Assembly (NCBI GenBank): GCA_963777315.1
Contig: CAVZQC010000004.1
Coordinates: 640,001 to 704,000 of the forward strand
Direction: 5' to 3'
Source of the DNA: Vulcanimicrobiota bacterium
GTDB lineage: Bacteria > Vulcanimicrobiota > Vulcanimicrobiia > Vulcanimicrobiales > Vulcanimicrobiaceae
Length of the DNA: 64,000 nt
Shown: positions 16,094-44,195 of the stretch, one piece after another
Layout: each line of letters opens with the position of its first letter
How positions within the stretch are numbered: position 1 is the first letter of the stretch
Translations under genes and position numbers: made by a program
The notes under the pieces: generated by a model
What the model was told of the DNA's origin: nothing
Databases searched by the model: none
The model's input: only the letters and a program-made list of their open reading frames with translations

Positions 16094-16558
16094 TTAATCA
16101 CTCTCCATTACACACGTGCACGCGACCGTATTTCTGTTCTCGCCGCAGGACGCGCAAAGGCCTTTACAGTCCGCTGCGCACAGCACGTTGAGCGGAACGG
16201 CGCCAAAAAGCAGTTGCGTCGCCAAATCCCGTACGTCCAATCGATCTCCGGCCAGCACGTTGCTCGTACCGAACGGATCGCTTTGCGCGTCCGGCCCGGT
16301 GTCGAGCTGCTCTTCAACGTCGACGTGCAATGTCCGATCGACGTCGGCCAAACATCGGTTGCACTCCCCGTAAAAGCTCGCGTCGATCGATCCCGCGATC
16401 TCCAGCATGTTCCCCGAAGACTGCATGGTGAGATGCACGGCTGCCGGAGCGAAGCGCACGCCCTCGAACGGCTCGAGCTCGACGTGCTGATCGAGCACGA
16501 GTCGCTGTCTGCCCCCTGCAAGCAAGCCGCCGACGTCAACTTTGTACGATGAAGCCAT
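16094..16558 (-). CDS. yceD: DUF177/YceD family protein
   Basis: ECNRCL and LCAADCKGLCASCGEN; upstream of rpmF. Confidence 0.9.
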   Translation of the reverse strand: MASSYKVDVGGLLAGGRQRLVLDQHVELEPFEGVRFAPAAVHLTMQSSGNMLEIAGSIDASFYGECNRCLADVDRTLHVDVEEQLDTGPDAQSDPFGTSNVLAGDRLDVRDLATQLLFGAVPLNVLCAADCKGLCASCGENRNTVACTCVMESD

Positions 16559-16666
16559 AACATAGAGGAAGGCCGCCCGGCGATTGGGGGGCCTTCTAAA
16601 CGCAGACATTGTAGACGGCGCGGAAGCGCCTTGTCAAACGACCGGCCCGGCGGGATTGAACTCCCG

Positions 16667-17392
16667 ATGAACACCATAACCAATCCGACGGCGTCCACTG
16701 CGGCCTTGGCCGGCCGCGGGGTCGCCTTCGCTCGGGACATTAGCGGCGCGGCAGCCCGGCACGGGCTCGACCCGCGCCTGCTGGCCGCGGTGGCGGCCCA
16801 AGAGACCGGCGGCCCCGGCAGCAATGCCGGCCACAATGTGGTGGGCGACGGGGGCCACGGTCACGGGCTCTTCCAAATCGACGACCGGTTCCACAGCTTT
16901 GCCGCCACGCCGGCCGCCATGGATCCTACGGCGAACGCCGATTACGCGGCGCGGATGATAACCGGACTGCTGAACCGGTACGGCGGCGACGTGCACAAAG
17001 CGCTCTCGGCATACAACGCAGGCGATCCGAACGCGCGCGGCACCGTAACCCAGTGGCCGGACGGCGCGCGTCTGGGTTACGCGGATTCGGTCTTGCGCCA
17101 TTATGCCATGCTCTCCGGGGGCAGCCCGCAAACATCCCCGAGCACGCCTTCCGTGCCCACGCACGATGCGCTATTGGATGAAATGAGCGCCGAAAGCGCC
17201 GCCGAGCAGAGCGGCGTCAATGCGCTGTCGTCGTTCGCGCTGCAGCTGCCCGCGATGCAGCAGCAGCCATCCTATTCGTATCGTCAGCTCGCGGGGTTGG
17301 ACGACAACGGCAACGGCAACCACGCTTCCGCGCTGGGCTCTATCGTCGATCCGGATTCGGACCCCGACGACGGCGCGGACCTTGTTCTTTGA
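16667..17392 (+). CDS. Lytic transglycosylase (SLT domain) with acidic low-complexity C-terminal tail
   Basis: LLAAVAAQET (catalytic E), GLFQID, ALSAYNAG; no signal peptide; start could also be TTG 16631. Confidence 0.88.
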   Translation: MNTITNPTASTAALAGRGVAFARDISGAAARHGLDPRLLAAVAAQETGGPGSNAGHNVVGDGGHGHGLFQIDDRFHSFAATPAAMDPTANADYAARMITGLLNRYGGDVHKALSAYNAGDPNARGTVTQWPDGARLGYADSVLRHYAMLSGGSPQTSPSTPSVPTHDALLDEMSAESAAEQSGVNALSSFALQLPAMQQQPSYSYRQLAGLDDNGNGNHASALGSIVDPDSDPDDGADLVL

Positions 17393-17439
17393 GATCGACT
17401 GCGTGATTGGCAACGCGACGAGACATGTGAGGAGCTGAA

Positions 17440-17820
17440 ATGGGTTTCAATATCGGTAGCGGCTTGATGGCCGGAATCCAAGGCTTTCTGGAAACGGGTA
17501 ATCCCGCAGCCGGAGTGGCAATGGGCGTAGCGGGCGGTCTGGCGGGCGGCGGTGCGACTGCCGGCAACCTCAGCGGCGCGCTCGGTAACGGGGAAATGGG
17601 TCTGCTCGATGCGCAAGACGAGCAGTTTCAAGTGCAGATGTACGCCGAGCAGATGCGCCATCAAGAGCAAATGCAGCTGCAGTCGCAAGCCTTCGATGAA
17701 ATGATGGACGAGAAATCAGAGCAGATGCGTGAAGTCAATACACTGCGCGACGTTCAGATGGCCCAGCGTAAAGCGGACAATCAGATCACCAAGAAGTTCA
17801 TCGAGTCGATCACCGAATGA
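17440..17820 (+). CDS. Small Gly-rich, Gln/Met-rich helical protein; candidate filament/needle-type subunit
   Basis: GAGGAG SD; C-terminal 40 aa are 20/40 identical to the next ORF. Confidence 0.8.
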   Translation: MGFNIGSGLMAGIQGFLETGNPAAGVAMGVAGGLAGGGATAGNLSGALGNGEMGLLDAQDEQFQVQMYAEQMRHQEQMQLQSQAFDEMMDEKSEQMREVNTLRDVQMAQRKADNQITKKFIESITE

Positions 17821-18023
17821 TCGACCGTACCAGGATGGCGCCGCGCGGCACGACGCCGAAAACGCCCGCCGACGGTGCGGTGGCTGCTCAGCAAGCGCAG
17901 TTCGACCAATCCATGGAGGAACGCGCGGAACTCGAACGCGAGGCCAACGTCCTGCGCGACATGATGCTCGCCCAGCTCAAAGCCGACGACGAGGTCCTCA
18001 AGAAGTACATCGCGATGATATAA
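17817..18023 (+). CDS. Small helical paralog of the preceding protein
   Basis: ATGA overlap with 17440..17820; shared FD..M.E..E..RE.N.LRD...AQ.KAD....KK.I..I. Confidence 0.8.
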   Translation: MIDRTRMAPRGTTPKTPADGAVAAQQAQFDQSMEERAELEREANVLRDMMLAQLKADDEVLKKYIAMI

Positions 18024-18083: not shown

Positions 18084-18160
18084 GGGCCATTAGCTCAGTT
18101 GGTTAGAGCGCATGCTTGATAAGCATGAGGTCCCAAGTTCGACCCTTGGATGGCCCACCA
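18084..18160 (+). tRNA. tRNA-Ile (GAT), CCA encoded
   Basis: Cloverleaf; anticodon arm CATGC-TT-GAT-AA-GCATG. Confidence 0.97.
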
Positions 18161-22047: not shown

Positions 22048-22084
22048 TATCATCGACGGTCCGGCCGCGCGGAGCGCCGGACCG

Positions 22085-22112
22085 TTGCACGCCACGGCGC
22101 GTGTGCTATACT
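22085..22112 (+). promoter_or_regulatory. Sigma70 promoter of rnpB
   Basis: TTGCAC-16 nt-TATACT with TG extension. Confidence 0.75.
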
Positions 22113-22118
22113 GCTCGA

Positions 22119-22508
22119 CGCGGAGTACGCCGGGCGGCCGCTCTTCCGTACGCGGAGGAGAGGAAAGTCCGGGCTTCACTGGGCAGGGTGCAGGATAACG
22201 TCCTGTCGGGGCGACCCGAAGGAAAGTGCCACAGAAACATACCGCCTCCAAAGCGCGCAGCAATTTGGGGGCAAGGGTGAAATCGTGAGGTAAGAGCTCA
22301 CGGAGCCGCGCGGTGACGCGCGCTCGGGTAAACCCCACCCGAAGCAAGACTGCTCGATTCTCCGCCGGCGCGTAAAGCGCGCCTGCGCAGCGGACGGCCC
22401 GTCCGCCCGAGCAAACGTCGCATCGAGGTCCGCGGCAACGCGGGCCCCAGAGAGATGGCCGTCTCCCGCTCTGCGGGAACAGAATCCGGCTTATAGGCGT
22501 GCTCCGCG
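22119..22508 (+). ncRNA. rnpB: RNase P RNA (bacterial type A)
   Basis: GAGGAAAGTCCGGGC, GGAAAGTGCCACAGAAA, GGTAAACCCCAC, AACAGAATCCGGCTTA; P1 pairing CGGAGTACGCC / GGCGTGCTCCG. Confidence 0.97.
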
Positions 22509-43804: not shown

Positions 43805-43877
43805 TGGATTGCTACGCCGGCCGTGGCGCGTCGGACGCGCGAACGTGCCCGGTTATCCGGGCGTGCTCTTCAACGAG

Positions 43878-44195
43878 CCGCACATCCGCGACGTTCAAAG
43901 CCTCGATGAGCGTCTCGAGAACGCCGAGGCTACATTCGGAGAGGGAGAGATTCGAACTCTCGAGACGCTGATGTCGGGCGCTTTGCGCCCGCACATCCGC
44001 GACGTTGAAAGCCTCGATGAGCGTCTCGAGAACGCCGAGGCTACATTCGGAGAGGGAGAGATTCGAACTCTCGAGACGCTCATGTCGGGCGCTTTGCGCC
44101 CGCAGCATCCGCGACGTTGAAAGCCTCGATGAGCGTCTCGAGAACGCCGAGGCTACATTCGGAGAGGGAGAGATTCGAACTCTCGAGACGCTCAT
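43878..44195 (-). repeat. tRNA-Ser-linked tandem repeat, about 2.9 x 111 bp, each unit containing the tRNA 3' end and an internal inverted repeat
   Basis: Units start at 43878, 43989, 44100 (+ coordinates), near identical; each has CGGAGAGGGAGAGATTCGAACTCTCGAGACGCT, the third being the tRNA itself. Confidence 0.96.

Follow-up and report, generated by a model that had tools for sequence, protein, structure and literature searches.

The transition from flagellum to injectisome is a long-standing question. The only intermediate described for it, the non-flagellar type III secretion system (T3SS) of Myxococcales, is flagellum-derived, motorless and secretin-less, is vertically inherited in free-living hosts, lacks FlgBCDEK and FliE/G, and is already without rod genes, according to the available part of the source (PMC3459982). 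The Hrp/Nop pilins measure 63-113 aa, form helices everywhere but at the N-terminus and show little resemblance from group to group, as given in the accessible text of PMC3973906. For the phylum studied here, the Vulcanimicrobiota, the accessible part of PMC9758169 describes a cultured Vulcanimicrobium strain as diderm, assigns its pili to type IV, reports no flagella or flagellin and lists fliN; in the accessible part of PMC9259500, the TXSScan result reads 'T3SS_putative, no_decision' and a predatory life style is proposed for one family of the phylum. Our literature search, in which subscription papers remained largely uncovered, found no description of the system of second exporter and A/B proteins reported below.

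The window analyzed here is a stretch of 64,000 nucleotides from the genome of a soil bacterium of the Vulcanimicrobiota. It contains a GH23 muramidase/lytic transglycosylase gene (16667..17392, + strand; 241 aa, Pfam SLT match), followed by the ORF of protein A (17440..17820, +; 126 aa, a candidate major pilin) and the ORF of protein B (17817..18023, +; 68 aa, a candidate minor pilin, adaptor or cap), which overlaps A by an ATGA. The first-pass annotation had described this compact, ATGA-coupled operon of an SLT, a 126-aa and a 68-aa protein, and all three ORFs were recovered where it had placed them. A tRNA-Ile gene (18084..18160, +; ARAGORN) lies directly 3' of B; it bounds the operon and is not thought to be a member of the system. 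The divergent neighbor yceD (16094..16609, - strand; Pfam YceD) is likewise context outside the system, and the back-to-back arrangement of the trio with yceD-rpmF-fabH is kept in most relatives. A promoter scan at the trio detected the divergent yceD site only, and no terminator. In some genera a 70-90 aa ORF between muramidase and A resembles the muramidase tail (L009:868-1140, L072:1764-1976, L212:1848-2102) and is a possible fourth small component. At another locus (L008, G007:C61) an element led by a recombinase-like gene separates B from A, and A and the muramidase are found ~19 kb off. Elsewhere in the window, a short ORF of two near-identical 27-residue units (43845-44120) is located just before a tRNA-Ser at 44159 and may stem from an integrated element that left duplicated tRNA ends behind, and the non-coding stretch after a tRNA-Ala (~22050-22350) has a look that we take to be that of RNase P RNA.

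An ungapped C-terminal alignment of A and B has 20 identities in 40 positions, whereas 300 shuffled versions of B never gave more than 12 in their best 40-residue window with A. The gapless match reported earlier was thus reproduced, with one correction: it had been assigned to the last 40 aa of both proteins, which is true of B, whereas the A segment stops 2 residues short of the C-terminus. Alignment of the A and B profiles by hhalign gave a probability of 98.7%, exceeding all 40 column shuffles, and we concluded from these sequence comparisons that A and B are paralogous. Protein A has a Gly/Ala-rich uncharged N-terminus (2% charged residues in the first 25, with Gly-rich apolar stretches) and then a single long Gln/Met-rich helix; B has a variable Pro/Ala/Thr-rich N-terminus and the conserved C-terminal helix. 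A measures 100-138 aa, with 97-98 aa in family f3, and relatives of B 64-125 aa with the C-terminal 40 residues fixed; across the relatives of both, the N-termini differ in length as well as in sequence, the final 40-45 residues stay constant, and Pro is absent from the last 45 residues in 21/21 A and 23/23 B rows. The AF2 model of A, of modest confidence (mean pLDDT 63.7), shows two short helices and one long helix (44-125). A four-copy complex prediction of the A helix scored 0.22, a value that speaks neither for nor against polymerization. The best 19-residue hydropathy mean is 1.22 for A and 0.36 for B, and hydropathy stays under the transmembrane level in 20 of 21 A homologs. Within one genus, dN/dS of A is 0.03-0.08. 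Pfam and NCBIfam scans assigned no family to either protein. A joint A/B profile run against 1.84 billion representatives collected 232 proteins, the matches being without names or context, and in the Atlas the clusters to which A itself belongs are from Vulcanimicrobiota (also called Eremiobacterota). Two unpublished genomes (G021 and G028) supply rows in the A, B and joint alignments, and the tallies in this work include the unpublished G021, G028, G029, G048, G059, G234, and G262; no conclusion depends solely on them. A and B are real and strongly conserved proteins.

The muramidase consists of a catalytic domain (residues ~17-148) and a low-complexity tail, with no evident signal peptide. 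Its Pfam SLT match (E 9.5e-10; 38.5 bits vs. a cut-off of 21.3) is accompanied by goose-type lysozymes as best solved relatives (E 1.8e-7), and the Glu of its helix motif is aligned with the catalytic Glu of lysozyme g; with the SLT domain and the catalytic glutamate position both present, its sequence assigns it to GH23. It shares these two features with goose-type lysozyme and the GH23 lytic transglycosylases, of which EtgA, IagB, and FlgJ are functional analogs, but differs from the IagB/EtgA/FlgJ group in being nearer to lysozyme g than to IagB (the IagB model match is weak, E 2e-4), signal-less, extended by the low-complexity tail and limited to one family. Muramidase homologs begin a few residues ahead of the catalytic domain, and together with the hydropathy values this supports the earlier statement that none of the trio has a Sec signal.

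Of the 181 genomes of the class, 172 were matched by a profile built from 21 homologs of A, with 151/160 in f1 (the family of the window), 3/3 in f2 and 18/18 in f3; in other classes the profile matched 0 of 69. The layout is mostly muramidase-A-B in f1, A-B alone in f2 and a single A in f3, where the short protein lacks the Gly-rich apolar N-terminal stretch; A occurs without muramidase in both f2 and f3. At E<=1e-25 the muramidase was found in 140/160 genomes of f1 and 0/90 others, upstream of A in 21 of 29 f1 loci. The trio, whose conservation in relatives the first-pass annotation had proposed to check, is conserved in most of f1, but its muramidase does not extend beyond that one family. 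The notion of a dedicated injectisome-type SLT fares in a similar way: an SLT enzyme is conserved beside A in f1, but it is goose-type-like, restricted to that family, and the export cluster described below has an SLT of its own.

FlhA and FliP are each encoded twice in the genome. One pair is part of a complete flagellum, which includes hook, rings, flagellins, and MotAB (most of these gene labels come from reading and blast, not all from family scans). The other lies on contig C6 at 30.5-48.8 kb in a cluster of flagellum-type gene content: FlgB-like, FlgC, FliE, FliF, FliH, FliI, SLT, aspartyl protease, FlgF/G-like, FliM-like, FliN, FliP, MetF, FliQ, FliR, FlhB, and FlhA2, plus an ORF that is presumably FliK-like. 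Hook, flagellin and stator genes are all absent from this second cluster. The f1 and f2 loci read preserve its gene order; those read in f3 cover the FlgF/G-to-FlhA half only. The A/B loci never adjoin the export cluster in this class. An export apparatus elsewhere in the genome and distinct from the flagellum, for which the first-pass annotation had proposed to search, is thus present as the second FlhA/FliP cluster, and is of flagellum type. By NCBIfam, FlhA2 scores 636 to FlhA and 503 to SctV, and FliP2 is over the flagellar cut-off; for FlhB2 and FliI2 the SctU and SctN models have a slight edge over the flagellar ones, with every score far under cut-off. No SctC or SctD match was seen in the cluster. 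It contains no secretin gene (secretins are located elsewhere in the genomes, and the closed G144 has none), and no outer-membrane ring linked to the second system was found. The cluster has FliF and does not present the combination of an SctC secretin and SctD/SctJ rings with SctRSTUV. We concluded that the second apparatus is flagellum-type (FliF, FliE, FlgC, FlgF/G-like, FliN) and not an sct cluster.

Some further features of contig C6 were recorded. The FliF of the second cluster (L036:18498-19919 = G000:C6:46497-47918) ends in a piece resembling the FliG middle domain (Pfam FliG_M at cut-off), and the cluster is without a separate FliG. FliI2 (L036:16788-18011 = G000:C6:44787-46010) matches its relatives to about residue 337 and then leaves the frame; a sequencing error is possible, and further genes of the same assembly also appear frameshifted. 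At L035 (G000:C6:8888-22362), what we take to be phospholipase D, DUF1998-like, helicase, methylase, and SNF2 genes follow one another in a row that presumably resembles the DISARM defense system.

Four candidates per genome were scored in the FlhA search, and genomes with zero matches were rechecked with FliP. By our own reading of the search, 141 of 160 f1 genomes have an FlhA match stronger than any flagellar FlhA match. Seven closed genomes that carry A (G005, G006, G015, G024, G144, G177, and G205) have one FlhA match each, with no flagellin over cut-off and no FlgI, from which we reasoned that the second exporter has a non-flagellar cargo. Flagellin over cut-off was absent in 5/5 genomes tested and, in a second set, in 13/15, where none of the 13 genomes with the second exporter only had it; FlgI was absent in 17/20 and the hook domain FlgE_D2 in 5/5 of the genomes tested.

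In other classes of the phylum a syntenic cluster contains FliI, FliJ, SLT, FlgG-like, FliM, FliN, FliP/Q/R, FlhB, and FlhA, and FliG/FliJ are found there too. FlhA2 and the matching FlhA of these classes form one clade (support 99 in a 40-row quick tree and 100/100 in a 19-row LG+G4 tree), separate from the flagellar FlhA of the phylum and from SctV; the trees were built without Myxococcales (including their SctV) and Chlamydiae. The best tree groups the FlhA2 clade with flagellar FlhA (80/87), outside SctV, and a forced union of FlhA2 with SctV was not rejected (AU p 0.22). An origin of the FlhA2 system independent of injectisomes is favored by these trees, short of demonstration. Among the FlhA2 relatives listed (at least 120 matches), all were 72% identical or closer and none from outside was reached. 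Other classes also encode stand-alone proteins that match the cytoplasmic half of FlhA only, from 1 to >10 per genome (for example L099:8070-9557, and 19 family matches in G105); this expansion may provide substrate-specific docking for the second exporter.

Fifteen class genomes, picked for missing FlhA or A, were checked for FliP. Intact FliP is missing in 12; FliP is present and A unmatched in G018, G193, and G231, all three of which are fragmented assemblies. In the nine export-less loci that were read end to end, the interval from rpsI to secD has lost the export genes apart from remnants. The status of A/B was recorded in 11 of the 12 genomes, with G218 left out: A/B are intact in five (G131, G219, G152, G164, and G212), not found in G012 and G019 (in G012 A/B are lost and the export remnants broken), damaged in G201 and G232, and altered by a Leu-to-Pro change in G099; in G216 the exporter is lost, A is split and B has two stops. 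Broken A/B in export-less genomes is not diagnostic, because the export-positive assemblies G001, G006, and G015 have frameshifts in A as well. Among G099, G131, and G219, dN/dS of A is 0.03-0.04. Branch counts about twofold higher in G131/G219 than in G114 were considered as a sign of relaxed selection after exporter loss; a control gene gave the same result and the counts were rejected as evidence. The export-less genomes of genus g50 do not form one clade (AU p 3e-7) and still carry remnants, so the exporter losses may have been repeated and recent. Four non-sister genomes (L066, L207, L208, and L209) have lost the export genes and kept the aspartyl protease and MetF genes with an SLT remnant; these remnants all begin at one shared -10-like hexamer, which may be the promoter of the protease.

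The other classes, in which A and B were not matched, carry a different small protein, X (77-95 aa, predicted single helix), and the two distributions are complementary. X lies within ~6 kb after flhA in 11 of 16 other-class loci read, usually behind a conserved 80-120 aa ORF (L081:9586-9930, L089:8592-8882) that has no NCBIfam family and is a candidate chaperone. It occurs in 62 of 69 other-class genomes with up to eight matches each (a few of them weak), often as near-identical tandem copies, and longer X paralogs bear low-complexity N-termini. Among named records, X is found mostly in Xenobia or in unclassified MAGs; some records under other phylum labels are taken to be mislabels. The A/B and X profiles stay in register up to their C-termini (E 7.6e-4, probability 25%), and the alignment score of 21.9 is over all 40 column shuffles (maximum 12.0) and the reversed profile. 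The A/B profile ranked X members 2-9 of 9,946 segments, and the X profile run against 2,701 proteins placed B second and did not recover A, no E-value being significant in either search. A wider X alignment lowered the probability to 7%, and one of 60 control comparisons (f3 vs. a rod-protein C-terminus) scored 20.7, near the A-X score. Homology of A/B with X, judged on sequence, architecture and complementary distribution together, is likely, although the sequence link is weak and the case no more than suggestive.

A and B were then compared with needle, pilin and axial proteins. PDB sequence searches with the A, B, joint, and X profiles gave nothing meaningful, Pfam and NCBIfam searches of A/B members found no needle or pilin family, and hhalign scores of A/B against three SctF and one SctI sequences were within the shuffle range. 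A/B resemble the SctF needle proteins (PrgI, MxiH, YscF) and SctI in size, in the helical C-terminus and in their association with both a lytic enzyme and a type III exporter; unlike them, A is one long helix without the PxxP hairpin, and no sequence relation is detectable. The assignment of A/B to the SctF needle or SctI rod families is not supported on these grounds. Searched with the models, Foldseek found no match and VIA returned generic long helices only (best Z 6.7), and derivation of A, B or X from flagellar D0 helices (FlgB/C/E/F/G/K, FliE, FliC) was not supported, with scores within the shuffle range; the structural and profile checks proposed earlier against SctF, SctI and flagellar axial proteins thus ended without a needle or D0 match. 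Atlas leads for A are HrpA_pilin (0.89) and HrpE-like (0.85), under the 0.9 mark and with a recognition value below the mark. All named rows for B are type III needle/pilus families (0.84-0.89), 3 of the 10 best matches being one family; rows of this kind, including the T3SS_needle_F and SctF clusters at 0.84-0.89, are leads only. For A and B alike, the named clusters that come nearest are of HrpA, HrpE, SctF and needle types.

The closest likeness is in anatomy. The Hrp pilins (HrpA, HrpY, HrpE) and NopA, as portrayed in the available text of PMC3973906 and PMC6026121, share with A/B a small size, a helical fold apart from the variable N-terminus, a conserved C-terminal half, absence of a Sec signal and low similarity between groups; A, at 100-138 aa, exceeds the size range given for them in the available text of PMC3973906. 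A/B differ in having no Pfam match to the Hrp/Nop families, in a free-living host of a Terrabacteria-side phylum, in a flagellum-type exporter with rod genes and no linked secretin, and in the presence of two paralogs in a muramidase operon. If at all, A/B work like Hrp pilins, and they are not filed as SctF. The exporter shares with the Myxococcales system its flagellar derivation, the lack of motor and secretin, vertical inheritance and free-living hosts, but the Vulcanimicrobiota cluster keeps FliE, FlgC, FlgB-like, FlgF/G-like, and a full FliF, with FliG/FliJ in other classes (PMC3459982, available part). With the flagellum it has in common the export gate, MS ring, C-ring parts, ATPase, and proximal rod homologs; flagellin, hook D2, and P-ring are absent where the second system stands alone, and A/B/X are unlike D0 helices.

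We consider that A and B are probably HrpA/NopA-like pilins, subunits of a thin tube secreted by a phylum-wide, flagellum-derived but hookless and motorless, non-flagellar type III system, which probably arose separately from injectisomes. The uncharged Gly/Ser/Ala-rich N-termini would serve as export signals, and the subunits would pass the FliP/Q/R-FlhA/B gate powered by FliI and stack through the conserved C-terminal helix on a rod of FliE, FlgB/C, and FlgF/G-like proteins, with A as the bulk and B as the minor subunit. The muramidase, which has no evident signal and would be a late acquisition of one family, is predicted to take the same path out and open the peptidoglycan, and the filament might be periplasmic or cross the outer membrane without a ring. 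The earlier idea of type III filament subunits therefore gains from the look of the pair and from the export apparatus in the genome, and loses the SctF/SctI identity. That identity, with A and B as true needle and inner-rod proteins of a divergent injectisome, we regard as highly improbable: the needle rows of the Atlas, the marginally better SctU/SctN scores of FlhB2/FliI2 and the unrejected union of FlhA2 with SctV lean toward it, but they are outweighed by the failed Pfam, NCBIfam, PDB, and SctF/SctI comparisons, the missing helical hairpin, the FliF, FliE, and rod genes in a cluster with no SctC/SctD match, and the higher flagellar scores of FlhA2 and FliP2.

A and B might instead be exported by the second apparatus without building a tube, as translocon-, tip- or effector-like cargo, with the N-terminus of A entering a membrane and the muramidase acting as an antibacterial or self-remodeling effector. 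This is unlikely. In its favor, the N-terminus of A is nearly uncharged with Gly-rich apolar stretches, the lysozyme-g-like, signal-less muramidase is redundant with the SLT of the cluster, and predation has been proposed for one family (PMC9259500, in the part available). Against these points, the hydropathy of A homologs is almost always sub-transmembrane, the short A of f3 lacks the apolar stretch, and the occurrence of X in tandem, near-identical copies suggests a structural subunit needed in bulk. Quite unlikely, in our judgment, is a role of A/B independent of any type III apparatus. They might, for instance, take part in cell-wall turnover by inhibiting the muramidase or by pairing with it as coiled coils, FlhA2 co-occurrence then reflecting shared class ancestry only. 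Such a role would account for the five FliP-less genomes with intact A/B and low dN/dS and for a locus by yceD-rpmF-fabH, far from the export genes, and co-occurrence carries little weight since A/B and FlhA2 are both near-universal in the class; the polyphyly of the g50 export-less genomes and their remnants, the existence of A without muramidase in f2 and f3, and the position of the likely homolog X in the export cluster argue the other way.

In a wider form of the pilin reading, the phylum carries throughout an ancestral secretion machine to which the flagellum gave rise by a route separate from that of injectisomes; this machine would have retained the proximal rod, shed motor, hook and filament, and acquired its own family of single-helix pilins (A/B, and multicopy X in Xenobia); to this wider proposal we would give slightly less than an even chance. 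If true, a phylum-wide exporter that has rod parts and uses a new pilin in place of flagellin would provide a second natural experiment in the passage from flagellum to secretion system, and the 'flagellar' annotations and some of the pili seen in the phylum would be misassigned. The cultured Vulcanimicrobium, which has pili and fliN and no flagellin in the available text of PMC9758169, makes the idea directly testable.
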